IMG/VR virus record: IMGVR_UViG_2671180804_000003
Span: 1-43,036 of that record
Length of the DNA stretch: 43,036 bases
Origin: a virus
Lineage: Duplodnaviria > Heunggongvirae > Uroviricota > Caudoviricetes
Direction: 5' to 3' (one strand)
Positions 20,319 through 41,887 of this stretch are shown piece after piece (position 1 is the stretch's first letter; each line of letters starts with the position of its first letter). The position numbers and the translations under genes were made by a program. Under the pieces are notes generated by a model. That model had not been told where the DNA came from. It did not search any database and worked only from the letters and a program-made list of their open reading frames with translations.

Positions 20319-20823
20319 TCAGCACCTCTGTCATCCTGTCCGCCGGTACATCCAGATCAGCAGCCATTAGCGGCGCCACCCTGGACGGCCAGTTAAGCCA
20401 GGCATCACGCTGTTGGCGAAAGGCGTTGAATAAAACCTCCTCGGCTGCTGTCAGCTCAATAAGCTGGCCGCTGTATTTTTCATACTGCAGCTTTGCCTGC
20501 AGGGCCATGTAATTCTCGCGGATACGTCCCGCTTCCTCTCTCGAAAGATCTGCCCCTTCAGTGAGCATTATCTGGCGGACAGTTTTATTGATTTCATCAC
20601 CGTCATCATCGTTATCGCTAACGACGGGAGTTTTCTTTTTCTTCGCGTTCGAGGCGCGCGGGTCTTTGCCATCGCGGTTTTTCTTCAATGCCGCATCGCT
20701 GGCCTCTACGTCAATCAGGTCTCCGTCCATCACAATGAAGCGCCCGGCTTTAATCCACCGACCAATTGTTTTGCGATCCACACCTGAATGTTGTGCGTAC
20801 TGACTCTGGTTCATCGTGGTCAT
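20254..20823 (-). CDS. Terminase small subunit (Nu1-like, N-terminal HTH)
   Basis: 189 aa; N-terminus MNQSQYAQHSGVDRKTIGRWIKAG resembles Nu1 winged HTH; adjacent to repeat array. Confidence 0.8.
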   Translation of the reverse strand: MTTMNQSQYAQHSGVDRKTIGRWIKAGRFIVMDGDLIDVEASDAALKKNRDGKDPRASNAKKKKTPVVSDNDDDGDEINKTVRQIMLTEGADLSREEAGRIRENYMALQAKLQYEKYSGQLIELTAAEEVLFNAFRQQRDAWLNWPSRVAPLMAADLDVPADRMTEVLIEHVHKHISVLGEPEFNPAED

Positions 20824-20970
20824 GGGACATCACCTGGGACATTTTCTGGGGTGGGACATTCGCCTGGGACATTTTTGCCATGTCCCACCAGAATGTCCCA
20901 CTGGAATAAACTGGAATAGCCAGAGCTGGCGAGGTGTCCGTAATGATCGCCAGAGGTGGGACATGGGACA
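20823..20970. repeat. cosB-like array of TGGGACA(T) repeats upstream of terminase small subunit
   Basis: At least 5 direct copies of TGGGACAT, 2 inverted copies (ATGTCCCA) and one shorter TGGGACA within about 150 bp. Confidence 0.5.
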
Positions 20971-21062
20971 CAAATCTGAAAGTTGTAGCTAGGAAAACAC
21001 CGCGGCGCGCAATGCCCGTGCCTTACAAAAGGCTCAGGAAGGACCCAAAACCCCTGGGGGGG

Positions 21063-21716
21063 CTATCTGGCCGAGCTGATCGCCTCAGCAATCGCCTGGT
21101 GCAGCGCTGAGGGTAACAATGCGTTGGCCATGGTGTTTGCCCTGTCCATATAGCCGAGCGTTGGTTTGACTGGAAGCGCGTCTCCAAACCGAATAAGCAA
21201 TTTTGGTGCAGGTTGCTTAATCTTGTCTCTGCGCGTGCCGTTCGGAGAACGTTTTGCCCGTTTCTTCCCTTTTTTGGTTTTCGGCTTTTTTCTCTGCCAC
21301 ACGGCATTCACGCCACCAACGTCACCAATAAATACGTTTGGCTTTGCTTTGAGCTGAGAGAGCTTATTACGCGGCAGGTTGCCGTATTTATTAAGCTTTA
21401 TGTCTTTCGGGTTAAGCAAAGCACCACCATTAAGCTTGTGCGCTCCGCCGAACTCGAAGGGTTCAAGGTAGCCAGCAGCAGTATCACGAACAAACACCTT
21501 CGCACGAAGGCTGTTTTTCCTGGCACCAACTGACCCTACCGATTTAACTGTAAAAGGTGTTGGATTATCCAGATTCTGCTCAAATGCTGTTTTTTGGGCC
21601 GCTTCTATCTGGCGAACCACTTTAGTCATAGCCTGGGCAGTCGCAAACGGTATTTGCTTCTGCAGCTGTCTTAACTGACTGGAAAGGTCCTTAAGCGTTG
21701 CCATATCATTGACCAC
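21063..21716 (-). CDS. Hypothetical protein (basic C-terminal half)
   Basis: 217 aa ORF between lysis cassette and cos region; no family recognised. Confidence 0.4.
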   Translation of the reverse strand: MVNDMATLKDLSSQLRQLQKQIPFATAQAMTKVVRQIEAAQKTAFEQNLDNPTPFTVKSVGSVGARKNSLRAKVFVRDTAAGYLEPFEFGGAHKLNGGALLNPKDIKLNKYGNLPRNKLSQLKAKPNVFIGDVGGVNAVWQRKKPKTKKGKKRAKRSPNGTRRDKIKQPAPKLLIRFGDALPVKPTLGYMDRANTMANALLPSALHQAIAEAISSAR

Positions 21717-22678: not shown

Positions 22679-23214
22679 TAATCTAACCCCCAACACGCCA
22701 GCGCGCTTTCCTGGTCCCGTCTCTCAACCTGACCATAGCAGCCATTCTTCTGGCCTTTGGTTAGTCGGCAATCGCGGCCACCGTCTTTGATCCACCAGCG
22801 GATTGCTTCACATGCCCCTTTACGATCACCGGCGTTGATGCGTTTATAAAAGGTAGAAGGGAAGCATTTACCAGGACCAATGTTGTACGGGCAGAATGAG
22901 GCAATCCCCGCTTTCTGCGGTTCGGTCAGTGGTACCTGGATATTGCGGTCGACCCAAGCCAGCGCCTTGTTCAGCTCGCTGGCGTTCACCTGATTACATT
23001 TCTCTGGCGATAGCCTCATACCTGGGGTAACAGGCTTGCCGTCAACCGTGGTAGCTCCCCGGCAAATCGTCCAGATACCGCTGCCATCTTTGTACGCTGT
23101 AAGGCTGTTTCCCTCTTTCTCATTCAGAAACTGATCGAGAATGACGGATGCTGGCGCACCAGCAAGTACCAACCCCAGAACAGCAGCACTTAATTTTGCT
23201 CTGGATCCCATCAC
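22678..23214 (-). CDS. SAR endolysin (T4-lysozyme-like muramidase with N-terminal signal-anchor)
   Basis: Hydrophobic Gly/Ala-rich N-terminus then E..YKD..G.WT.C.G catalytic region; resembles phage 21 R. Confidence 0.8.
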
Positions 23215-23513
23215 TCACCTTCCTTTTGTAATGCCTCAACGACCACGCTTGCAGCCGCAGGACGTTCGTGAAGGGGTTTATCACCAACGCCTTTCAGGTA
23301 GTCATTAACCATTTTTGTTCGCTTCTCGTCCTCTCTACGCCTGCGGTGGGCATCCACGCGACCATTGACATAGGAGGCAAACGAGATAAGCAGACCAGCG
23401 GCGCCAAAGAACATGAACACCATATCCTGAGTGGTAAAACCAATGGCTGACGCCAGAGCTGCTACCCACGCGAAGAACTGCGTGAAAATGTTCCCTGAAT
23501 CATTCATTTTCAT
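23211..23513 (-). CDS. Holin (likely pinholin partner of SAR endolysin)
   Basis: 100 aa, two hydrophobic segments then charged C-terminus; first gene of lysis cassette. Confidence 0.65.
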   Translation of the reverse strand: MKMNDSGNIFTQFFAWVAALASAIGFTTQDMVFMFFGAAGLLISFASYVNGRVDAHRRRREDEKRTKMVNDYLKGVGDKPLHERPAAASVVVEALQKEGE

Positions 23514-23581
23514 GGTCTCTCACCTCGCTGTGTGCGGGTGTTATTGAGGTAATAAAAAAGGCCGCTTGAGCGACCTCACGT

Positions 23582-24634
23582 TTATTCCCCTGTTAACGCC
23601 CTTATTTCCTCCACCGTCTGGCTAAACCTGTCCTCCTCGAGTTCAACGCCGATAGCCTGGCGGCCAAGTTCCAGCGCGATTTTCACGGTCGAACCGGACC
23701 CCATAAAGAAATCAGCCACCACATCACTAGGCTTACTGCTGGCGTTGATGATCTGCCGCAACATGTCAGCGGGTTTTTCGCATGGGTGTTTACCTGGGTA
23801 AAACTGAACGGGTTTATGTGTCCAGACGTCGGTATAAGGAACGGATACGGAAACAGAGAAATGCCGCCGAAGCGATTTGTACTCTTCGAGCAGCTCTGAA
23901 TACTTGCGATTTAACGAATGCCACATAGCCACCAGCTGGTGGTGTGGTGTTGCCAGTTCGCCGTTCTGGTGCTTTTCGATGGCTACCTGCGTGAAAAGGG
24001 ACTGAAGATTCCGGTAGTCTGATTCATTCGGTAATTGCCACTGGCTACCGCTGAACCAGTGAGACACCATGTTCTTCTTTCCAGTCGCATCGGCTATTTG
24101 TTTTGAGGTTATGCCAAGCGCTTCACGTGCATCCCGGAAATAAGAAATTAGGGGAGTCATTACATGCTGCTTCAGCTCGCTTCCCTTCTCCGCGTAACCG
24201 TCGCTCTTTGGTTTATACGGCCCCTGGTAATGCTCAGCGAAGAGGATGCGCTCTGTTGCAGGGAAGTAAGAGCGCAGACTCTCTTTATTACAGCCATTCC
24301 AGCGGCCCGACGGTTTAGCCCAGATGATGTGGTTCAGGACGTTGAACCGCTCACGCATCATGATCTCAATGTCTGCCGCCAGGCGGTGACCGGAGAAAAG
24401 ATAAAGACTGCCAGCAGGTTTAAGCACTCGCCAGAATTGTGCGAGGCACATATCAAGCCAGCGAAGATAATCCTCATCCCCTTTCCACTGATTGTCCCAG
24501 CCGTTGGGTTTCACTTTGAAGTACGGCGGATCCGTGACTATCAGGTCAATGGAGTTATCAGGGAGAGTGGCGATGTATTGCAGGCTATCAGCGTTGACTA
24601 ACTCAACACTGTTTATATTTACAGTATTTTTCAT
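23582..24634 (-). CDS. DNA methyltransferase, beta-class amino-MTase (N6-adenine or N4-cytosine)
   Basis: DPPY motif near N-terminus (LIVTDPPYF) and FxGxG (FFMGSGST) near C-terminus. Confidence 0.85.
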   Translation of the reverse strand: MKNTVNINSVELVNADSLQYIATLPDNSIDLIVTDPPYFKVKPNGWDNQWKGDEDYLRWLDMCLAQFWRVLKPAGSLYLFSGHRLAADIEIMMRERFNVLNHIIWAKPSGRWNGCNKESLRSYFPATERILFAEHYQGPYKPKSDGYAEKGSELKQHVMTPLISYFRDAREALGITSKQIADATGKKNMVSHWFSGSQWQLPNESDYRNLQSLFTQVAIEKHQNGELATPHHQLVAMWHSLNRKYSELLEEYKSLRRHFSVSVSVPYTDVWTHKPVQFYPGKHPCEKPADMLRQIINASSKPSDVVADFFMGSGSTVKIALELGRQAIGVELEEDRFSQTVEEIRALTGE

Positions 24635-24803
24635 AGATCAATAAGCGTAACTCTGATAGGCTCTCTTTGCTTTTGCGCTAAAGCAATGGGCCTTGGTTAG
24701 CTTGTGACCTGAAAGCATGAGCTGATGGCTGGTGGGTGCTCCAACATCCACCAGCCGCCCATTTTCACAGCAAAATACCTCCGAAATGGAGGTGCGAAGG
24801 CAT

Positions 24804-24826
24804 AAAAAAACCCCGCTTAAGCGAGG
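24804..24826 (-). terminator. Rho-independent terminator ending the two-gene cassette
   Basis: Forward AAAAAAACCCCGCTTAAGCGAGG; on minus strand a GC stem followed by T7, about 20 bp after stop of 24844-25248. Confidence 0.5.
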
Positions 24827-24843
24827 TTATTTCGAATAGATAA

Positions 24844-25248
24844 TCAAGCAGCAGGTTCGGATGGATAAACCTGCTCATACATCTGCTGAAGGGTGTCAAT
24901 AGCTTTGTTAGCCATTATCAATATAGCTTCCGCATCAGCCTTACTTAAAGTTCTATCAAGCTCGTAATCTGCCCATTTACGTCGGGTATGCAAATGTCTC
25001 AGCATTGTTCCCATAGAAATGAGTTTCATTTTTTCAAACGGCTCATTTCCTTTTAACCATGCATCATTTGTAAGATAGTCGCGAACAGCTTGGTGTGACG
25101 ACTTGTTTGGGCATTTCTCAAGCTTATCAAGCGTTTCATGATAAACTCCATAATACGCTCGACCAATGGCGTTTCTGTAACCGATTTCATCGTTGTGAGA
25201 AATGCATTTACCAGCAAAAACAATAAAATCTTTCCCCGATACGCTCAT
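24844..25248 (-). CDS. HEPN-like small protein (putative RNase-type toxin/effector)
   Basis: 134 aa; RAYYGVYH (R-x6-H) in a predicted first helix plus RRKWADYE, resembling HEPN hallmarks; AT-rich; start overlaps upstream stop (ATGA). Confidence 0.5.
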   Translation of the reverse strand: MSVSGKDFIVFAGKCISHNDEIGYRNAIGRAYYGVYHETLDKLEKCPNKSSHQAVRDYLTNDAWLKGNEPFEKMKLISMGTMLRHLHTRRKWADYELDRTLSKADAEAILIMANKAIDTLQQMYEQVYPSEPAA

Positions 25249-26003
25249 CAGTAAATCCCTCTTTTTTCATCGCTTTGAAACCAGGATGTAAAAGGGCTGT
25301 TCCGATAACTATCATCTGAGAGCAAAACCAACAGTTCCATGTTCATTTCAGCTAAAACCTGCGGATCAGCAGTTTGGGCTCTAACGATGAATGCATTGTC
25401 ATCATCTCCACCAAGATAATAGCTAACACTTGAACAGTTAATACCGCGCTTGTTCGCAATCTCTTCAGCTTGATCGCAAAGGGCTTCTAGTTCTCGAGAA
25501 GAAAGACGGGTAGCGTTTTTGAAATCAACAATCTGTTCAGCCATATAATTTCCCTGATTGATTATATCCTCTCGCTCTTGGCCATCATAAAGAGCAGCCA
25601 TTTTGAGGGAGAACTTTTTAACCAACTTGTCGTTGCCGATACAAAATGCAGCGTTTCTTGCTACAAGCCTCAGTTCATGTGAAGGGAAAAGCTCAACTAT
25701 TCTAAACAACTCAACGCGATGCTCATAGTTATGAGCCGAACGAGAAAGATACGCCAAGTAGTTTTGTGCGATCGTTGGACTCCCAGAGCTCATCGCGTCT
25801 TTGAATAAACGTACTGCATCAGAGTGACGCCCGAGAGTTCCATTAAGCCATGCATACGCATGTGCGCGCTCACTTATTGGAAGTTTAGCAATGTCGCGCT
25901 CAATTTCCGCAATAGTGTCTGTATCCGGGACTTCTCCCTTCTGGAAGTAATCGAGGATTGTTGCAAGCAGTTCTTGTTCTTTTGACTCAGGCTGTCCTGA
26001 CAT
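25248..26003 (-). CDS. Hypothetical helical protein, partner of HEPN-like gene
   Basis: About 251 aa from MSGQPESK; no recognisable catalytic motif; translationally coupled to downstream gene. Confidence 0.55.
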   Translation of the reverse strand: MSGQPESKEQELLATILDYFQKGEVPDTDTIAEIERDIAKLPISERAHAYAWLNGTLGRHSDAVRLFKDAMSSGSPTIAQNYLAYLSRSAHNYEHRVELFRIVELFPSHELRLVARNAAFCIGNDKLVKKFSLKMAALYDGQEREDIINQGNYMAEQIVDFKNATRLSSRELEALCDQAEEIANKRGINCSSVSYYLGGDDDNAFIVRAQTADPQVLAEMNMELLVLLSDDSYRNSPFTSWFQSDEKRGIY

Positions 26004-26124
26004 AATTTTCCCGAAGAAAACCAAATTCTGTATGTTTTCAATAGCTTCACTGGATAGGTTTTTATATTGCTGTCATCAGTATTGAAGCTTTTACGGGATT
26101 GTACAGGACCATCAGCGTTCTACT

Positions 26125-26228
26125 TGTGCATAAGAATTTAATAAACCTACAGACTTATCCACAGAAAAAAGAGTTATCAACAAAAAAAGTTATTCACAAC
26201 TTAACTAATAGCAAAATATTGTTGATAA
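26125..26228. promoter_or_regulatory. Cluster of DnaA-box-like 9-mers in cassette upstream region
   Basis: TTATCCACA (26155-63), TTATTCACA (26190-98), TTATGCACA on minus (26125-33), plus two TTATCAACA variants. Confidence 0.4.
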
Positions 26229-26350
26229 GCTGTGCGTAATTATCATATCCATCAAACTTACGCACATTAGAGCCTTGTGTTGCCTATCCATCGTTTTTTC
26301 CTATCAAAACGAAACGACATGCTTTTCTGCGATTAAAAAAGTATTCCGCA

Positions 26351-26378
26351 AAATTAAAAAACCCGCTCACTGGCGGGT
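26351..26378 (-). terminator. Rho-independent terminator downstream of Q-like gene (tR'-like)
   Basis: Forward AAATTAAAAAACCCGCTCACTGGCGGGTTT; on minus strand a CCCGC/GCGGG stem followed by TTTTTTAATTT. Confidence 0.55.
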
Positions 26379-26472
26379 TTATATACTGTTGGCAACATAT
26401 CAAATTAGCTTCAAATATCGCTTATTTTGTTGCATTTTGCAAGCCCAATTGAGGGAGTTAGTGAAAGTTATC

Positions 26473-27165
26473 TCACATTTCCGCCACTTTGAGTTCTTGG
26501 TACTCTTCGTACCGTGACAAAATTTCGCTTAGTGCCTGGCTGTCCATTTCTGCAAACGACGCTTTGAAAGCCGCCCAGTGGCCTGAATACACTCTGAGCC
26601 AGGTGGAACGCTCAACGCTGACCATGCGCGCCAGAGCTGCTCCAGCATACTCCTGATAGGTATCGTTATTACGCGAGGCAGCAACTTCTTGCGCCGCCAG
26701 CCAGACAAGCCCTATCAGTTTTTTAGTGACACGGCCCTGTATTTTTTTGCCGCTATGCTGACGCTGAAATTGTTCCCACACGTACTGGCACATTAACGTC
26801 TGGTACCGGAAGGTCAGGTCATACCCATAGCAATACCGCACCCATGCCTGCAAATGCTCCCCCAGACCATTCACCGACCGACGCCATGCTGAACAAGCGA
26901 ACTCCGTATCCTTAATAGGCGGTAAAGGTCGGCGACGGCTCCTTGTCTCAAGAACATAAAGCGGAGTGGCCAGAGTTTTTACAACCTTCGATCCACAACC
27001 TTCCCCACCTTCCATGACGATTTCAGGATGGTGCCGGGGGTATTTGTTCTTATCTGCTGGTGGATGCTCACTGAACGCCTGCAGCTGTCCTTTTGTCGAA
27101 CCTGATAAATCCGCCAGCGCTCGGCGCAGTTCAATCCGCGTATATTCCAGTTCTTGTAAATTCAT
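26473..27165 (-). CDS. Putative late-gene antiterminator (Q-like)
   Basis: Position immediately upstream of terminator and late genes; Cys-containing 230-aa protein; family assignment tentative. Confidence 0.45.
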   Translation of the reverse strand: MNLQELEYTRIELRRALADLSGSTKGQLQAFSEHPPADKNKYPRHHPEIVMEGGEGCGSKVVKTLATPLYVLETRSRRRPLPPIKDTEFACSAWRRSVNGLGEHLQAWVRYCYGYDLTFRYQTLMCQYVWEQFQRQHSGKKIQGRVTKKLIGLVWLAAQEVAASRNNDTYQEYAGAALARMVSVERSTWLRVYSGHWAAFKASFAEMDSQALSEILSRYEEYQELKVAEM

Positions 27166-27186
27166 TATGCTCAGCGCTCCATACAA

Positions 27187-28248
27187 TTACGCTTTTGTTA
27201 TTACGCCGATCGCCAGCGCTCGATTCATAAATCGGAATAGCAGCTCCAGCTGGGTACCGTGTTTTTTCTCGAACGCTGCAACATCAGCATGTAATTTGTC
27301 GTGACACTCTCTGCACAGAGGGATCACGAACAAATCGTGGGCTTTAGTGGCGGTACCGCCCATGCCGTGACCAATGACATGGTGTGGATCATCCGCTGGC
27401 CGCCGGCAACCTTCACAGGGCTGGGTTTTAGCCCACCGGGTATAGTCCTCATTCACCCACCTGCGGTGTTTTGGGCGCAACATGAATGATTCAGGGGATT
27501 CAGGATCCGCATGCAGAGCCAGAACCTGTGGCTGGTCATAGGCCACTTCCTGATTTGTTCCATGCTTTAAATGCGCAGCCGTGACCGCAGGGGTGACCTT
27601 CTTCTGCAAAATGTTTTTTGTCGGTGGCATCGGCACAATGTCACTTTCGCGATATACGGATAAAAACGGCTCATCCGGTAAGCGAAGCGCATGCTGGGCC
27701 ATCCTTTCCGTGATTGCATCAGCAATGCCTGAGTAAACGGCCCACCAGCACAATTCACCGAGGGATAGTTCACGCTCGTTGTTGTAGCCAAGCGAAGACA
27801 GGATAGAACTGATCAGCCAGTTAATGAGATTACGCCGGGCCAGTTCTGCCAGCGCCGCGGTGGTTTGCTCGCGCAGCTGGTTATCGCAATGCCAACAGAG
27901 CAACATTGATCCAGGGGGATGTCGCATCGTTACCAGCTCATGATGGTGATAATCAGTGTGCGGGTACTGGCATTCCTTCACGTTACGCTCTAGCCAGGAT
28001 TCCAACCCGGACAAACCGCCTGCTGCACGGATAACTCTCTCGTCGGTGAAGAATTCCTCGAGGGACTTATCTTCTGCCAGCGGCTGCCGGGCATCAGGGA
28101 CGAGCCCCGACGGAAGCCCAGCCATGCTTTTTGGCTGAGGCTCCACCAGCACACGCCCCTGTTGAAACAAAGACATCAGTTCGCTACCCGGCTTTAACAG
28201 CACAAGCCCAAGGCGCGGAACAGTCTCGGCTGTAAACAGTCCTCTCAC
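27187..28248 (-). CDS. DUF968-like protein with C-terminal HNH-like Cys/His motif (YdfU-like)
   Basis: 353 aa; C-terminal HHVIGHGMGG...CRECHDKLH; typical lambdoid nin-region gene. Confidence 0.55.
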   Translation of the reverse strand: MRGLFTAETVPRLGLVLLKPGSELMSLFQQGRVLVEPQPKSMAGLPSGLVPDARQPLAEDKSLEEFFTDERVIRAAGGLSGLESWLERNVKECQYPHTDYHHHELVTMRHPPGSMLLCWHCDNQLREQTTAALAELARRNLINWLISSILSSLGYNNERELSLGELCWWAVYSGIADAITERMAQHALRLPDEPFLSVYRESDIVPMPPTKNILQKKVTPAVTAAHLKHGTNQEVAYDQPQVLALHADPESPESFMLRPKHRRWVNEDYTRWAKTQPCEGCRRPADDPHHVIGHGMGGTATKAHDLFVIPLCRECHDKLHADVAAFEKKHGTQLELLFRFMNRALAIGVITKA

Positions 28249-28937
28249 GCGGCATGCCCCTTAGCGATGTGTGCCGTCCACAGGCCGCCGATCCACTCGA
28301 TGCCTTTGGGTGTAAAACGTGCCTGGCTAAAGGCGTAGTTTGTTTCGCTCGTAGTGCCAGTTTTCACTTCAAACCGCCCGGCAGCAATGTGCTGGTGCCG
28401 AGGTGTCAGCACTCCACTGAGCCGGTACAAAATGCCGCTCTCAATGAGGAACAAGCGGAAATCGGTCTCTTTGGCCTGCAACAGCTTTGCCACCTGGCGG
28501 AAAGACATTGAGCCTTTGGCAGTACAATATCGATCGACAAACTCAACTTTCGGCGCGGCAGCGGCTAACTGCTGGCTGAGTTGTTCTTTCTGCTCGGCCA
28601 GATCCGCGGCGAGACGTAATGCCTCCGGCAATGTTTGCGGGACACTTACGGCCTGGCTGTTCTCCAGCTCTTGCCAGCGATCGACAACAGCGGCGGTAAA
28701 TTCTGGCGACAGCCTGGCGACGATCACCAGAGAATCACGTTTGTTAAACCAATACTCCTCGTAGGTTTGCCCGTTTTGCGGGTGTGTGTAGGGGGTGTGC
28801 GCCAACGGCGCGGTTAAAATACCAGCAGATGCAAGGCGCTCAGCTGAGCGCTTCACATCACCATGTTTGCTCTGCACCAGCCTGGCAATTTCACGGCTGG
28901 ACATTGTCACAACACCCTTAGCGGTTAACTGATTCAT
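28245..28937 (-). CDS. Rha-family phage regulatory protein / antirepressor
   Basis: N-terminal MSSREIARLVQSKHGDVKRSAERL matches Rha family; start at MNQLTAKG. Confidence 0.7.
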   Translation of the reverse strand: MNQLTAKGVVTMSSREIARLVQSKHGDVKRSAERLASAGILTAPLAHTPYTHPQNGQTYEEYWFNKRDSLVIVARLSPEFTAAVVDRWQELENSQAVSVPQTLPEALRLAADLAEQKEQLSQQLAAAAPKVEFVDRYCTAKGSMSFRQVAKLLQAKETDFRLFLIESGILYRLSGVLTPRHQHIAAGRFEVKTGTTSETNYAFSQARFTPKGIEWIGGLWTAHIAKGHAA

Positions 28938-28951
28938 GCTATTTCTCCATA

Positions 28952-30889
28952 TCAGGCGGCTGCACCCGCCTTTTGATTTGCACATAATTCAGGAAGATTT
29001 GCTTCTACCAGCGCACGAGCGAACGGCGGCGGTACTGCGTTACCACAGCGCGCTACCTGCTTGTCTTTGGCGTAACGATTGCCGCGATAGTCCTGATCGA
29101 TAACGTAGCCGTCAGGGAAGCCCTGCGCCTTATAAAGCTCATGCGGTTGCAGCATGCGCATTCCGATATCGACGATCTGGTACTTAACCCCCTCGATCGT
29201 CACCAGCCATTCATCCTCGCTATCACCGCAGTAGGTTTCGAGGAATGTCCGGACCTCGCCAACGTGCTGGCCACCAGCGGTAATCGTCGGCATAGGTGTA
29301 TCCATGGTCTGACCGTCGCGGCAGGTTCCGCGCAGCTTCACCAGGTGCGACGCAACTACCGCGTGGTGATCAACAGTAGTGACTGAGTGGGCAGGCTCAT
29401 CCATACCAACACCCGGCCCCGTGTAATTCCCACCATAGTGCTTCGCCAGGAACGCGCTCACCGTTGCAAACTTATTACCACCAGCAGTGACCGTGCCGAG
29501 CGGGTTATTCAGTTGAAGAACACGCGGTTCTTGCCCTGGGCGTTCGCCGTACCCCATCTGGATCAGTGTTGGAGTTACCAGCTGCGACTTACCGCCACCA
29601 CCTGCAGTAATCGTCGCACTCGGTTCGTCAGCCCTGTGCCCAACACTGGCTCCAAACTGGCGGGCGATGACCGGCGCAACCACGCACGCGCGGGACTGCT
29701 TGAGGATTGTATGAGCGGGTTTATCCAGCGGGCGCGGCTTTGCCTGGTACTCACTGCCGCCATTGCCAGCCAGGAACGGTGTCAGGGCGGCCTCAACTAC
29801 GCCAAGCGCATGCCCATTCCCGCCCGGGCGCGCCGACGTACCAGCGGTGACAGTTGGTACCGGCTCGGTCACTGGCTGCCCGGTGGCCCCGGTGCGGAAT
29901 TTAGTAAGATGCGGTACCGCCAGTGCGTAGCCATGCTTTTTAGTGATGGTCTGCAATGGCTCTAACAACGATTGCCCGCGGAAACAGTCATAACCTCCTT
30001 TCGTCGTGGTGTGGTTACACTTCACGATGAAAGGTGATGCGCTTTCGATAACAAAGCGCTGGATGCCGCGCGCGATACGTTTGAGCGTATTTTCCGCCAG
30101 CGGCTTTTTGCGGTCGAAGATGGACCGGGCCGGGATATTCCAGTCAATGCACTCCGCCGCGGTACGCCATGGCGCCAGCTTGCCGCTTTGTACTTCCAGT
30201 GATTTTGGATCCCCATGAGTCGCTTCAGGCCAATGAATCTTGCGGCCGTCACAGCGCATGACCATGAAGAAACGCTTTCTGATCGTCGGCGCGCCGTAGT
30301 CACATGCGCGCAGCTCCCGATAATCAACCTCATAACCAAGCCCGGCGATCAGCTGTTGCGCCTGCTGGCCGTGCGGCTCAATGGCAAGGAATTCACAAAC
30401 CTCAGCCAGCGCAGGGTGATTCGCCGCGATCCCCGTCGACAGCATGCCGACAAATGCCTCGAATGTTTCGCCAGCACGCTCAGGATCTGGGCGTAATTCT
30501 TCATCCAGCAGCGGGCCCCATGTCTTAAACTCTTCGACGTTCTCCAGCATCATGACGCGGGGACGTACTGCCAGCGCCCAGCGCAGGACAATCCACGCCA
30601 GCCCGCGAATCTCTTTCTTAACCGGCTTAGCGCCCTTCGCCTTGGAAAAGTGGCGGCAGTCAGGGCTAAACCAGGCCAGACCGACAGGTTTACCGCTGGT
30701 GGCTGCGCTTGGGTCAACGTCAAACACCGACTCGCAATAATGCAGCGTGTCAGGGTGATTCGTCTTATGCATCGCAATAGCGTTTTCGTCGTGGTTGATA
30801 GCGATATCCACGCTACGCCCGATCGCCAGTTCAATGCCGGTACTCGCGCCGCCGCCACCAGCAAAGTTATCAACGATAATTTCACGCAT
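28952..30889 (-). CDS. DNA (cytosine-5)-methyltransferase
   Basis: Motif I DNFAGGGG, PC motif FSPDCRHFS, ENV motif MLENVEEF; start at MREIIVDNF. Confidence 0.85.
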   Translation of the reverse strand: MREIIVDNFAGGGGASTGIELAIGRSVDIAINHDENAIAMHKTNHPDTLHYCESVFDVDPSAATSGKPVGLAWFSPDCRHFSKAKGAKPVKKEIRGLAWIVLRWALAVRPRVMMLENVEEFKTWGPLLDEELRPDPERAGETFEAFVGMLSTGIAANHPALAEVCEFLAIEPHGQQAQQLIAGLGYEVDYRELRACDYGAPTIRKRFFMVMRCDGRKIHWPEATHGDPKSLEVQSGKLAPWRTAAECIDWNIPARSIFDRKKPLAENTLKRIARGIQRFVIESASPFIVKCNHTTTKGGYDCFRGQSLLEPLQTITKKHGYALAVPHLTKFRTGATGQPVTEPVPTVTAGTSARPGGNGHALGVVEAALTPFLAGNGGSEYQAKPRPLDKPAHTILKQSRACVVAPVIARQFGASVGHRADEPSATITAGGGGKSQLVTPTLIQMGYGERPGQEPRVLQLNNPLGTVTAGGNKFATVSAFLAKHYGGNYTGPGVGMDEPAHSVTTVDHHAVVASHLVKLRGTCRDGQTMDTPMPTITAGGQHVGEVRTFLETYCGDSEDEWLVTIEGVKYQIVDIGMRMLQPHELYKAQGFPDGYVIDQDYRGNRYAKDKQVARCGNAVPPPFARALVEANLPELCANQKAGAAA

Positions 30890-32216
30890 TGACGGCCCCC
30901 TGCATGCTGTTGAAGAGACCACCAGCGGTCGTGATAATTTCACTCGTCGGCATACGTTCGAGCCACAGCTGGTTGATATTGGCTTTCAGCTTGTTCTGCT
31001 GCGAAACAGGTAGAGCGTCAGCCCCTTCAATCTGGTTAAACACCAGTCCAACCTCAAGAGGCCAAACGCGCGATTCGTTTAACGCCTTGTCCTTTGATTC
31101 CTGCGTCTCACGGACATGGGCGCGGATCCCCCGAATATTTGACCATTTGGCTTTATCCAGGCTTTCCATGGTCGCGATGAATTCACTGTGGTTAATGCCG
31201 TATTCTTTCGCAGACTCAACGGCAACCGTGCGTAACCGCTCTGACATGTCTTGTTTCACGTCATCGCTATCAAAGGGCAATGTTTCCAGCCATGCATTAA
31301 CACCCACCAGGATGCTCTCGCTGATCAGCTTTTTCGCTCTGTCGATCGTCAGCGGTGAAACATTGGTAAATTCAGGGTTTTCCAGAGAGTCGGCAGCCCA
31401 GGTATGACCAAACTTTGACTCGCTGAAGGTGTACTCGTCTTTCTTGCCGAACGCCGCGACAACACAGGCCCAAGCCTCTACACCGCTGGTTTCCAGAATG
31501 GCTTTTTGGGTTAATGGCAGTTCTGCCTCTGATTTCTCCGGCACTACCTCAGCGTCCAGCTCCGGCGCCGCATCAGTTTGCGTTCTTCCCACGGCAAATT
31601 GGGCCAGCGACATCGCAGCACGGCCTTTGGCCTCCAGGTCGGTGCGGTTGATGTAACTGAAACGCTCACCCCGCCATGTTTTGTCGAAGACCACGATAGC
31701 GCCAGCAAAAAATGCGCTGGTGGGCTGCTGCTTTTCGTCTTTCGGCACGAACCATGTAGGAAGATCGAAACCAATTCGGCCACGGATGAATGTGACGTGA
31801 TCTGCCTCTACCGGCCACCACGTTTCACTCGTCGCAGACTTAATGAGAAAAACGTACCGACCACCCTTTTCTCGCATGGCCATAGCGTGGTTAATGATGT
31901 GGGTCATTCCGGTAACGGCCTGCTTGTCGTGGTACTGAGAGCGGCTGTAAGGCGGGTTGCCAAACCCGGCACCACCGAGTTCTGCCAGCCGCTCTGACCA
32001 ATCCTGCGTCAGGGCATTATCTTCAGCCGTGTACCATGCTGGGCACTTCGCGTTGCTGTCGTCGGCAAAAAGGTCCAACACCAGAGGGCCGAACATCGCA
32101 TTGATCCCCCAAAACAACAGATCCGGAGTGCGCCATTGATCACCGACCTCTTTCAACTCGTGTGCTGGTTTTGAACGGAGTTCAGCCAGTGCACGGCAGT
32201 ATTTATTTTCCATCAT
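30882..32216 (-). CDS. Phage Dam-type N6-adenine methyltransferase with about 250-aa C-terminal extension of unknown function
   Basis: N-terminal W.TP..LF and GFGNPPYS motif typical of phage Dam family; C-terminal half unassigned. Confidence 0.65.
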   Translation of the reverse strand: MMENKYCRALAELRSKPAHELKEVGDQWRTPDLLFWGINAMFGPLVLDLFADDSNAKCPAWYTAEDNALTQDWSERLAELGGAGFGNPPYSRSQYHDKQAVTGMTHIINHAMAMREKGGRYVFLIKSATSETWWPVEADHVTFIRGRIGFDLPTWFVPKDEKQQPTSAFFAGAIVVFDKTWRGERFSYINRTDLEAKGRAAMSLAQFAVGRTQTDAAPELDAEVVPEKSEAELPLTQKAILETSGVEAWACVVAAFGKKDEYTFSESKFGHTWAADSLENPEFTNVSPLTIDRAKKLISESILVGVNAWLETLPFDSDDVKQDMSERLRTVAVESAKEYGINHSEFIATMESLDKAKWSNIRGIRAHVRETQESKDKALNESRVWPLEVGLVFNQIEGADALPVSQQNKLKANINQLWLERMPTSEIITTAGGLFNSMQGAVNA

Positions 32217-33067
32217 CCTCTGAACCCCTCTGGAATCTTGCTATCAACCGGACCGAACTTCATCGGGTCATGTTTCTTTTCACCCCAGCTGTCACGCGGT
32301 GGCCGCCCCTTCTTGTCCCAGCGGATCCCGCTTTGCAGATAACCTTCAAATTTTTTCGGACCGAAGAGCGTTTCAGGACGCATGTACTGGTACTGCACGT
32401 CATTGCCGTTCCAGTGCTCATGCTTAAGGTCGATCACCAGCTGTAAGTCGCTAACGGTGTAACCTTCACGCAGACGAGCACGGATGTTTTCCAGAGAAGT
32501 TTTTGATTTTTGGTATCGTGAGCCACTAACCAGGTTCAGATGATTCAGAACCAGGATGGCGTTATCGGTGATCATCACTTCAGGGTCTGGTTGCGGCGCA
32601 ACCGGACAAGAAGGTTTTTTAACTGATGGATCAGTAGTTGTATTTACTGACGGATCCCCCCCAGATTCTGACGGGTGAAAACCGCCTTTTTCATCGTTTT
32701 TTGATGCCTCAGATTTTGACGCGTCGGTTTTTGAGGCATCAGATTTTGATGCGTCAGAATCTGACAGGTGAGAAAAGGCAGCAGCCTGCAATTTCGCAAC
32801 ATTGAGCTGGTAAACGTTCGATGCATTTCGGTTGCCTTTACGGCGCTGCTGGCGGGTTAACCAACCATCTTTTTCCAGCTGAGATATGGCTGTACGAACC
32901 GTGCTCTCACCAGCACCAATCTGGCGCGCGATGGTAGCGATGGAAGGCCAGCTAACCCCTTCATCACTGCTGAAGTCTGCCAGACGCGCCATGATGGCAA
33001 CGCTGGATAACTTCATGCCTGACGAAGCGCATGCATCCCATACGTAACCGGTTAATTTAGTGCTCAT
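32213..33067 (-). CDS. Replication initiation protein (N-terminal HTH, O-like organisation)
   Basis: N-terminal HTH (WPSIATIARQIGAGESTVR); central SDASK repeats encoded by tandem DNA repeats; C-terminal conserved phage region. Confidence 0.55.
   Translation of the reverse strand: MSTKLTGYVWDACASSGMKLSSVAIMARLADFSSDEGVSWPSIATIARQIGAGESTVRTAISQLEKDGWLTRQQRRKGNRNASNVYQLNVAKLQAAAFSHLSDSDASKSDASKTDASKSEASKNDEKGGFHPSESGGDPSVNTTTDPSVKKPSCPVAPQPDPEVMITDNAILVLNHLNLVSGSRYQKSKTSLENIRARLREGYTVSDLQLVIDLKHEHWNGNDVQYQYMRPETLFGPKKFEGYLQSGIRWDKKGRPPRDSWGEKKHDPMKFGPVDSKIPEGFRG
32661..32770. repeat. Tandem 15/30-bp repeats inside replication gene (iteron-like, candidate ori)
   Basis: TTGATGCCTCAGATTTTGACGCGTCGG / TTGAGGCATCAGATTTTGATGCGTCAG with flanking partial copies. 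Confidence 0.45.
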
Positions 33068-34308: not shown

Positions 34309-34333
34309 CAATTATTAGCAACTTAAAATAGAA

Positions 34334-35053
34334 ATGACAACTATGCCTTGTGCGCTTAATCTTCTACTTATGGTGGAAAATGCTAAATACAAAGACTTTG
34401 CCGAAAGGCTAAACAGGTCTCTCCAAGAGCAATCTATTGGAGTTAAAGAATTGTCAGAGTTCAGTGGTGTCTCGTATGAGATGGCGCGGCGCTACACTCT
34501 TGGTACTGCAAAGCCGAGAGATGAGAAGATGATTCGAATTGCAGAAAGACTTGCCGTCTCACCGGCTTATCTTGATTATGGTGTGCCTGTTAATGGTGGC
34601 GACGCGCCAGCCAAAGGCACGGTCAGAATAGAGCAATTGGATGTTCATGCTTCAGCCGGTTCCGGATATATAAACCAACCATTCCCTACAATAGTGAGCT
34701 CAATAGAGATTCCAGAAGAGAGGATCTTCGAGTTGTTTGGTCGTAGAAGCCTTGATGGCATCGTCATGATAAATGTTGATGGCGATAGCATGATGCCCAC
34801 GCTTTGCCCAAAGGACCTGCTTTTCATAGACAGCAAGGTTGAACAATTCAGCGGCGACGGCGTTTATGTGTTCAATTTTGAAGACAGTACGTTCGTTAAA
34901 CGTTTGCAGAAGGTAAAAGGGCGCCGACTGGCAGTTCTTTCAGACAATGAACATTACCCGCCCTTCTTCATAGAGGAGCATGAAATGAATGAACTATACA
35001 TATTCGGCAAGCTAATCAGATGCTTACCTCTAAAAATGATAGAGTTTGGCTAA
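34334..35053 (+). CDS. CI-like repressor (XRE HTH plus S24 LexA-type autopeptidase domain)
   Basis: N-terminal HTH; C-terminal GDSMMPTL and FVKRL (Ser/Lys dyad); no SD upstream, consistent with a leaderless start. Confidence 0.85.
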   Translation: MTTMPCALNLLLMVENAKYKDFAERLNRSLQEQSIGVKELSEFSGVSYEMARRYTLGTAKPRDEKMIRIAERLAVSPAYLDYGVPVNGGDAPAKGTVRIEQLDVHASAGSGYINQPFPTIVSSIEIPEERIFELFGRRSLDGIVMINVDGDSMMPTLCPKDLLFIDSKVEQFSGDGVYVFNFEDSTFVKRLQKVKGRRLAVLSDNEHYPPFFIEEHEMNELYIFGKLIRCLPLKMIEFG

Positions 35054-40586: not shown

Positions 40587-41768
40587 ATGGCAGCAAGGCC
40601 ACGAAAAAAAGAATACCGCCACCTTCCTGATTATCTTTTTTTTGATAAAGATCGTGGCGTGTATAAGTTCACGCTTATAACTGGGAAAAAGAAAACTCTC
40701 GGTTCGGATCGAGTAATGGCTATCGCCATCGCCCGAGAATATAACCTGAGGATGCGCCCTGAAAATACACCATCGATAGATTCATTAATTCGGGAATCGG
40801 GAGGGCTGAATGGTGAAGCCCACCCGTTTTCTGAACATGTTGATCGCATTATGGAGAGAGCGATCAAAGATGAGCAGCCGTCTAAAAGCACACTTGACGA
40901 TTGGAATAATGATGCCATCAGGGTTAAAGAATTTTTTAATAACATACCCGCATGCGATATTGAGCTTGAGCACGTAAATGCCTACATACGAAATTACCAT
41001 TCTGAATCGTCGGCCAATGTTCAGAACCGAAAAGTTAGCTTCCTGAAAAAGCTATTCTCTTATGCTGTTGATGAATCGCTAATGATGGATAACCCTGCAA
41101 CACGGAAAAAAATGCGGCGTGTCGATAAAAAGGTCCGCCGGCGACTCACTTTGGAACAGTTCTTGGCCATACATGCAGCTGCTGAACCTTGGCTGAAGAC
41201 TGCAATGGACCTTGCCATACAAACTACGCAAGCGCGCCTGGAAGTTTCCCGGATCCGGTACTCGATCAAGGAACCTCAAGAAGGGGTTTGCGGCTGTGTA
41301 TGGTTCGATCAGGAGGAGGCTGGCATATTCGGAACGCTTTACATTCACCGGCAAAAAGTGCAGCACAAAGAGGCTTCACACGTCGCTATTCCGATCGGCA
41401 GGGCCCTGAAAGAGATCATCGACAACAGCAGAGACAATGTGGCCAGTCCTTATGTTGTTCACCGGCTTCTGGAAAAGAGAAGCAATCCGATAAGTAAGGA
41501 AGTTAACCACCCAACACAGGTGGCCCCTGATTATTTGAGCAGGGCATTTTCAGAGCTGCGGGACCGGATAGGTGTAGCGGCAGAATTACCTATCAAAGAA
41601 AGGCCAACTTTCCACGAAATTAGAGCGCTGGCGGCTCATATTTTCGAAAGACAAGGTATCGATCCGCAGGCAAGGATGGCCCATAGTGATGCAAAATCGA
41701 CAAAAATTTATACCCAGAATCATGTTGAATGGGTTGAAGTACCACATGCAGAAATAAAAATGGCATAG
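40587..41768 (+). CDS. int: Tyrosine integrase, lambda Int family
   Basis: About 390 aa; N-terminal arm-binding-like region; C-terminal R...HxxR...Y region (HEIRALAAH, KIYTQNH). Confidence 0.9.
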   Translation: MAARPRKKEYRHLPDYLFFDKDRGVYKFTLITGKKKTLGSDRVMAIAIAREYNLRMRPENTPSIDSLIRESGGLNGEAHPFSEHVDRIMERAIKDEQPSKSTLDDWNNDAIRVKEFFNNIPACDIELEHVNAYIRNYHSESSANVQNRKVSFLKKLFSYAVDESLMMDNPATRKKMRRVDKKVRRRLTLEQFLAIHAAAEPWLKTAMDLAIQTTQARLEVSRIRYSIKEPQEGVCGCVWFDQEEAGIFGTLYIHRQKVQHKEASHVAIPIGRALKEIIDNSRDNVASPYVVHRLLEKRSNPISKEVNHPTQVAPDYLSRAFSELRDRIGVAAELPIKERPTFHEIRALAAHIFERQGIDPQARMAHSDAKSTKIYTQNHVEWVEVPHAEIKMA

Positions 41769-41792
41769 AAAAAGGCACCTGATGGTGCCTTG
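41768..41792 (-). terminator. Hairpin terminator at int stop (AGGCACC-tgat-GGTGCCT; T-run on minus strand)
   Basis: On the minus strand the stem is followed by TTTTTCT; also closes int on the plus strand. Confidence 0.45.
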
Positions 41793-41887
41793 AATAAAGT
41801 CTTGAATAAGACACCCGAAGGTGCCTTAAGTGGTTCTCTTAGCAACGAACTAAGAACGCCCACGCCTCATACCCATAATCATGAGCA

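Follow-up and report, generated by a model that had tools for sequence, protein, structure and literature searches.

Three solitary DNA methylase genes in a lambdoid prophage of Escherichia coli, one of them coding for a candidate multispecific C5-cytosine methylase with seven tandem TL-motif units

The 43,036-nucleotide (nt) stretch analyzed here, which we call the window (positions 1 to 43,036 of the IMG/VR virus record IMGVR_UViG_2671180804_000003), is a lambdoid (lambda-like) temperate phage integrated in Escherichia coli, and it carries genes for three DNA methylases of different classes. All three open reading frames (ORFs) are intact, lie on the minus strand exactly where a first-pass annotation of the letters had placed them, and score strongly against their families (Table 1). 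Methylase A, a beta-class N6-adenine enzyme, is encoded in the late operon between the Q antiterminator gene and the holin gene, while methylase B, a C5-cytosine enzyme, and methylase C, a phage Dam-type N6-adenine enzyme, are encoded between a replication gene and Q, in a region matching the nin region of lambda. Orphan methylases directed against restriction are a textbook phage strategy and the presence of three of them is in itself largely ordinary; the potentially new feature is the array of TL-motif modules in methylase B.

Table 1. Coordinates of the methylase genes, their domains and neighboring features in the window
Feature	Coordinates	Strand	Basis or remark
Methylase A, beta-class N6-adenine methyltransferase, M.EcoGII family, 350 amino acids (aa)	23582..24634	-	PF01555, M.EcoGII identity, motifs
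A target-recognition domain (predicted), aa 135-260, helix-turn-helix-like	23855..24232	-	
Methylase B, C5-cytosine methyltransferase, 645 aa, expanded variable region	28952..30889	-	PF00145
Array of seven tandem 32-48-aa units, aa 309-566 of B	29192..29965	-	TL motif P-x-x-[TS]-[IV]-[TL] per unit
Methylase C, phage Dam-type N6-adenine methyltransferase, 444 aa, three modules	30882..32216	-	PF05869, TIGR01712
Dam catalytic domain of C, aa 1-210	31587..32216	-	Pfam match aa 19-199
All-helical insert domain of C, aa 232-376	31089..31523	-	
C-terminal helical domain of C, aa 380-444	30885..31079	-	conserved
Terminator-like hairpin and T run	23558..23577	-	directly after the A stop codon; 8 pairs, 5 GC
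Terminator-like hairpin and T run	24809..24828	-	between the two-gene insert and A
tR'-like terminator hairpin	26359..26380	-	~100 nt downstream of Q
Q antiterminator	26473..27186	-	PF06323, 141 bits
pR-like promoter	34311..34340	-	10/12 consensus match, between divergent cI-like and cro-like genes
Holin	23211-23513		
Two-gene cassette (258 aa and 134 aa)	24844-26024	-	between Q/tR'-like terminator and A
DUF968/HNH protein, 353 aa	27187-28248	-	between Ant and Q
Replication gene	32213-33067		

Methylase B matches PF00145 at 73.9 bits (cut-off 22) in three stretches, and its catalytic motifs I, IV, VI, VIII, IX and X can be read in canonical order, with the strings FAGGGG, SPDCRHFS, LENVEEF, PTIRKRFF, RMLQPHELYKAQGFP (RMLQPHE...GFP) and GNAVPPP. 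Motif IV is P-D-C, having Asp for Pro before the Cys, and the same is found in 165 of the 186 family members checked. The ATG at 30889 is favored as the start by annotation and by homolog N-termini; the G-rich stretch CAGGGGG precedes it, and the resulting 645-aa form is the one used by RefSeq and by a cluster of 1,680 near-identical sequences (90% identity clustering). An alternative GTG at 30943, 18 codons upstream and within the end of the Dam gene, would give a protein of 663 aa. The catalytic motifs are confined to aa 1-215 and aa 575-630, which leaves about 360 aa between them, far more than in ordinary C5 enzymes.

It is in this variable region that the seven units follow one another, each built on the pattern x-P-x-x-[TS]-[IV]-[TL]...V...L...G and each holding the core of the published target-recognition domain (TRD) consensus P(STCA)PT(ILV)(TASV). 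Their TL motifs are found at aa 314, 346, 394, 426, 466, 502 and 535, spaced 32-48 aa apart, and when every unit was left out in turn and scored with a hidden Markov model (HMM) of the others, five of the seven outscored all 200 shuffles. In C5 enzymes the TL motif is a conserved DNA-contacting element close to the TRD's C-terminal end, and Trautner's group delimited multispecific TRDs with it (PMC2413257). The closest parallel is found in the Bacillus temperate-phage enzymes studied by Trautner and co-workers (M.SPRI, M.Rho11sI, M.H2I and M.Phi3TI), which, like B, are phage-borne and solitary, have one catalytic core with several contiguous 30-50-aa TL-motif modules between motifs VIII and IX, and differ in their modules between related phages. 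We fetched and inspected M.SPRI, M.Rho11sI and M.H2I, and found three to four TL motifs 30-47 aa apart in their variable regions. A profile of the B units matched the Bacillus enzymes weakly (best independent E-value, i-E, 0.002), and one B unit is visibly similar to a Bacillus TRD (EPAFTVNTIDRHGVA vs EPAHSVTTVDHHAVVA). B differs from these enzymes in belonging to another C5 lineage with P-D-C rather than P-C in motif IV, in having seven modules rather than three or four, and in its Gram-negative hosts, with relatives in phages of Actinobacteria, Pseudomonas, Vibrio and Burkholderia.

The relatives of B show how the array varies. Homologs from Enterobacter, Salmonella, Klebsiella, Citrobacter and Kluyvera are 85-97% identical to B in the aligned part, and their lengths are 605, 609, 626, 629, 644, 645, 659, 662, 680, 692, 694 and 695 aa. 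When aligned, they are separated by clean insertions or deletions of 35-39 aa, one period each, corresponding to whole single modules, and these natural single-module variants are intact and widespread; P0026 (609 aa), P0040 (605 aa) and P0002 (680 aa) are examples with one module lost or gained. Each insertion or deletion comprises the C-terminal half of one unit and the N-terminal half of the next, and with modules bounded in this way the TL motif falls close to the C-terminus of the module, in agreement with the published consensus. Among more distant phage homologs the number of units is three in a phi105-like record, four in Vibrio phage PVP-XSN, six in Aeromonas phage LPM4, and eight in both Burkholderia phage BgManors32 and Pectobacterium phage ZF40. 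A phmmer search of 1.84 billion cluster representatives with the variable region of B alone retrieved 1,999 proteins at E <= 1e-3, of which 1,081 reached E <= 1e-10, and the full-length proteins among the top 150 matches have three to nine units.

Clustering of units cut from the P-x-x-T start was rejected, as 452 of 544 units merged into one cluster, unit halves being recombined; for the final typing, modules were re-cut at the natural insertion and deletion boundaries. In this natural register the modules fall into discrete types that recur in differing orders: with letters denoting module types and not methylases, the window protein reads A-E-C-B-A-A, homolog P0251 reads B-A-C-A-A and homolog P0253 reads F-B-C-H-A-A. 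To judge from its homologs, B belongs at a minimum to a large, apparently uncharacterized C5 subfamily, with an array longer than those of the Bacillus enzymes. Phages ZF40, LPM4, PVP-XSN and phiNP have a B-type enzyme together with one or two adenine methylases; the first three are temperate and not related to one another, and phages seem to have combined several methylases repeatedly. In Pectobacterium phage ZF40, three methylases are annotated (gp20, gp21 and gp27).

Methylase A matches PF01555 (N6_N4_Mtase) at 145 bits (cut-off 26.7) across aa 29-340, and its motifs follow the beta-class order, DPPY at aa 35 preceding FMGSG (F-x-G-x-G) at aa 310. M.EcoGII, whose sequence was taken from the supplement of the SUPREM paper (PMC11551740), is identical to A at 272 of 348 positions (78%) over the full length with two gaps; the catalytic part at the N-terminus reaches 84%, the TRD 75% and the C-terminal part 73%. 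A joins the M.EcoGII family as a new member. M.EcoGII and M.EcoGI come from a prophage of E. coli O104:H4 C227-11 (Murray et al. 2018, PMC5778455), and A resembles M.EcoGII in length (350 against 349 aa), in the order of DPPY, central helical TRD and FxGxG, and in being prophage-encoded. It differs in being 22% diverged, in having its activity assigned from sequence, and in having a resolved context, namely a late operon, from Q to holin, with terminator-like hairpins on both sides of the gene. A weak HTH_3 match at aa 167-197 of A agrees with the modeling of the M.EcoGII TRD as a four-helix bundle similar to helix-turn-helix (HTH) repressors (PMC11551740).

M.EcoGII methylates adenine in any context, is unexpressed in the lysogen, and is harmful when expressed constitutively (PMC5778455), and a 2025 review groups it with Mom as 'silent in lysogens'. 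By its likeness to M.EcoGII, A is probably a non-specific adenine methylase with no target motif, so the first-pass proposal to express each enzyme and determine its target motif does not apply to A, and the expectation for a methylome shifts from a motif to near-global N6-methyladenine (m6A) on virion DNA. The phage Mu Mom protein, an example of 'Trojan horse' self-modification on exit, likewise has a broad spectrum, is silent in the lysogen or toxic to it, and has its expression confined to the late phase (2025 review). A differs from Mom in chemistry and protein fold, and no small ORF for a Com-like translational regulator was found upstream of A in the window. A homolog of A with 53% identity, from Aeromonas phage phiARM81ld (KT898133), is annotated beside a 'translational regulator Com-like protein', recalling the Com/Mom pair of Mu.

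Methylase C scores 146 bits against PF05869 (Dam, cut-off 28) and 200 bits against the equivalog model TIGR01712 (cut-off 97), and its catalytic motif NPPY is at aa 87. In its N-terminal 200 aa it resembles the phage Dam family, which includes HP1 Dam, T1 Dam and M.EcoVT2Dam and recognizes GATC, and the dam gene of VT2-Sa lies in the nin region as C does. M.EcoVT2Dam has 175 aa, whereas C has 444 aa with an extra helical insert and a C-terminal domain, for which (~145 and ~65 aa, respectively) no recognized fold or family was found. The C-terminal domain is common to 295-aa and 440-aa forms and matches phrog_16025 at aa 383-437. C is, in its domain organization as predicted, a domain-insertion variant of the phage Dam family. 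Its residues 1-203 are 72% identical to the uncharacterized Dam proteins of SfV and an Stx2c phage. M.EcoVT2Dam, from phage VT2-Sa and reported to be GATC-specific, was discarded as a close reference, since the two align at 41% identity over just 75 aa; the specificity of C is a family-level guess that leans somewhat toward GATC. Two further identifications were set aside. The non-specific adenine methylases Hia5 and Hin1523 have been placed with EcoDam, DpnM and T4 Dam, a different family. The label 'phosphoadenosine phosphosulfate reductase', given to C in phage records PP925821 and PP925827, comes from phrog_33262, which is matched only at its C-terminal profile positions 283-490, the Dam part; this PHROG is probably named after fusion proteins, and we treat the label as an annotation artifact that misleads for this gene.

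A consensus scan for terminators (hairpin plus T run) found 12 terminator-like sites in the region, compared with 2.8 expected. The one downstream of Q appears to mirror the position of the lambda pR'/tR' pair, two others lie on the two sides of A, and a consensus scan found no sigma-70-like promoter on the minus strand between the upstream hairpin at 24809-24828 and A. From these hairpins and the lack of a promoter-like site, we infer that A is transcribed only by Q-modified polymerase, and thus late. This would set the M.EcoGII family in a defined regulatory slot that is Q-dependent, insulated by terminators and immediately before the lysis genes. For B and C, no sigma-70-like site other than the pR-like one was found upstream of the two genes on the minus strand. 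Their coding sequences overlap by 8 nt, the C stop codon overlapping the B start in ATGCGTGA. The layout suggests delayed-early expression of B and C within the pR operon and late expression of A, and it suggests that all three belong to operons that would be off in the lysogen.

A matching locus in RefSeq is annotated as a complete lambda-type prophage beside yejO/narP, with tail genes, a lambda-like head and terminase module, lysis genes, Q, the nin-like region, the replication gene, a cII-like gene, cro/cI, early-left genes and an integrase. The structural genes are of lambda type (small and large terminase, portal, S49 protease and gpFI), and every late and early-right gene is on the minus strand of the window. 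The E. coli MSB1_9D chromosome matches the 8.9-kb region around the three methylases at 99.9% identity. Across 83% of the region, the isolated phage Eeyore is about 97% identical in nt sequence, and the Dam-C5 part is found at 98% identity in phage Flotzy, also isolated, suggesting that prophages of this type can be functional. Of 5,426 complete E. coli genomes, 12 have at least 80% of the region, so the trio is rare on one element. B is found in 13 of the E. coli genomes and C in 15, adjacent to each other in every full-length match listed, and the two make up a single module, which other Enterobacteriaceae carry more often than E. coli, where it is rare. A by itself is common in E. coli, with an A-type gene detectable by megablast in about 590 of the 5,426 genomes.

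Three further observations concern the rest of the window. Rfam and tRNA scans of the window found nothing. A gene for an Rv2179c-like 3'-5' exoribonuclease (PF16473, 241 bits; 41280-41852 on the plus strand, L001 37881-38453) lies where the early-left operon ends, immediately upstream of the integrase. With the lysis genes on one side and the small terminase subunit on the other stands a gene annotated 'Fur-regulated protein' (20640-21368 on the minus strand, L001 17241-17969). A short stretch of it matches PF09327, the phage tail tip fiber domain (E 5e-6), which is odd at such a location, and the gene may be another moron.

None of the three methylase genes has a recognizable restriction partner. 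As the first-pass annotation had said, no restriction endonuclease gene is adjacent, none appears in the RefSeq annotation, and no restriction-endonuclease family was found in the neighbors or in ten further hypothetical prophage ORFs with Pfam, NCBIfam, PHROGs and PADLOC, although such enzymes are often unrecognizable by sequence. In a Type II restriction-modification system a cognate endonuclease gene adjoins the methylase gene, an arrangement that was not found here. The sole nuclease-like gene near the methylases codes for the DUF968 protein, which carries a CxxC...H...CxxC...H motif and has a weak HNH-nuclease match (PF16784, E 0.003; phrog_96 'HNH endonuclease'). The two-gene cassette upstream of A has overlapping stop and start codons and a low GC content of 0.43-0.44; its proteins gave no Pfam, NCBIfam or PADLOC match, and their PHROG matches were only to families phrog_17809 and phrog_5176, which have no assigned function. 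Its site looks like a variable moron or defense slot.

Taken together, the three methylases are fairly probably solitary enzymes that would be silent in the lysogen and made in two waves upon induction, methylating the progeny DNA against restriction in the next host. In the first wave, the early-right operon would be transcribed from pR in the order cro, cII-like gene, replication gene, Dam, C5, Ant, DUF968 and Q, and would yield C, probably acting on GATC, and B, translationally coupled to it. If the seven TL modules of B are independent recognition domains, as in the enzymes of SPR, rho11s and H2, this one protein could shield several cytosine-containing restriction sites. In the second wave, Q-modified polymerase would read through the three terminator-like hairpins of the late operon and express A, and shortly before packaging and lysis this enzyme would methylate adenine in nearly every context. 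The cytosine and Dam-type marks would be set during replication, and near-global adenine methylation would follow just before packaging. What the enzymes recognize, when they are expressed and how they benefit the phage against restriction are the parts of this account that we infer from sequence. The proposal in the first-pass annotation of orphan methylases for anti-restriction or epigenetic control survives in its orphan status and its anti-restriction half, while epigenetic control in the lysogen is disfavored, as the genes belong to operons that should be off there.

Some points weigh against this account. Heavily methylated DNA is attacked by E. coli McrA, McrBC and Mrr, and the benefit would depend on the host. 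GATC methylation is largely redundant in a Dam+ host, and C is only remotely similar to M.EcoVT2Dam, the sole characterized enzyme with which it was compared. The methylases could instead be mainly regulatory for phage or host, either, as in P1, by placing packaging or replication under Dam control or by epigenetic reprogramming of the lysogen. P1 requires Dam methylation at pac, many phage orphan methylases have been proposed as regulators (2025 review), the gene for C comes immediately after the replication gene, and the extra helical domains of C are unexplained. Such a role is nevertheless improbable. The lambda-type head module would imply cos packaging rather than GATC-regulated cleavage at pac, making control of the P1 type unlikely, and regulation in the lysogen is disfavored because all three genes belong to operons that would be repressed or terminated there. 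In the literature, lysogens of Shiga toxin-producing E. coli (STEC) with M.EcoGI/GII and prophage Dam homologs had no additional detectable methylation motif, and a non-specific adenine methylase cannot carry site-specific regulatory information. Least probable of all is that one of the three methylases supplies the modification in a restriction-modification or toxin-antidote system whose nuclease is hidden in the DUF968/HNH protein or in the cassette proteins, even if the former is encoded two genes from B, the latter stand directly upstream of A with no known family match, and restriction enzymes are notoriously difficult to recognize. The DUF968 protein is an ordinary lambdoid nin-region gene product, common in such regions, and is kept in relative H13, which is without the C5 gene. 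Relatives that retain A hold unrelated genes at the cassette site, such as a 'SDH family Clp fold serine proteinase'. A-type genes occur in hundreds of E. coli genomes, a non-specific methylase would have no meaningful cognate nuclease, and neither the DUF968 protein nor the cassette proteins matched PADLOC models. A hidden partner is unlikely because the neighbors change between relatives while the methylases stay.

As for the array, we regard B as a candidate multispecific cytosine methylase, a tentative reading with slightly less than even odds; seemingly autonomous, shuffled modules are the pattern that the multispecific model predicts. A competing explanation, which we consider somewhat unlikely, is that B is an ordinary single-specificity C5 methylase, that the TL units are a structural repeat such as a beta-hairpin scaffold, a DNA clamp or an oligomerization surface, and that only the unit beside motif IX reads the target. 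The units do stand directly before motif IX in every member of the B family, including the shortest, the three-unit phi105-like protein, and several results count against multispecificity. The AlphaFold2 model of the array is unusable, with a predicted local confidence (pLDDT) of about 20 across aa 244-582 from a 52-sequence alignment, though the catalytic core is good. Searches for relatives of the array in the PDB, with a 33-position unit profile and with the whole 286-aa variable region, gave chance matches only. Units U3 and U6 did not score above the shuffles in the leave-one-out test, motif IV is not the canonical P-C even though P-D-C is the norm of the family, and the similarity of single units to Bacillus TRDs appears marginal, the unit profile barely detecting them. 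Some TL units of the Bacillus enzymes are reportedly inactive, and seven units need not equal seven specificities. A fixed scaffold, however, fits less well than autonomous modules with the conservation of module types across distant phages in different orders and combinations. Whole modules have been gained or lost between proteins that are 85-97% identical, and the reading frame stayed intact and the proteins are widespread; the TL motif is moreover the DNA-contacting hallmark of C5 TRDs, and its spacing in B equals that of the proven multispecific enzymes.

A wider and somewhat more tentative proposal is that B and about 2,000 related protein clusters may form an undescribed, phylum-spanning lineage of hyper-multispecific phage C5 methyltransferases, with one catalytic core and three to nine exchangeable TL modules. 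Arrays of multiple TRDs have been ascribed only to Bacillus temperate phages (2025 review), and we found no description of a multispecific C5 enzyme in enterobacterial phages in the open-access literature, which is weak evidence of absence. If the proposal is true, phages shuffle, gain and lose modules to track the restriction repertoires of their hosts, and a mechanism known from a handful of Bacillus phages would be extended, with more modules per enzyme than in any characterized case. If the array of B works like those of the Bacillus enzymes, arrays of this kind would be a general means of anti-restriction by shuffling, present in Gram-negative, actinobacterial and other phages, and the natural single-module variants would already show which module goes with which DNA motif. 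This key could serve in the prediction of phage host range, in the choice and engineering of therapeutic phages, and in the design of programmable writers of 5-methylcytosine (5mC).

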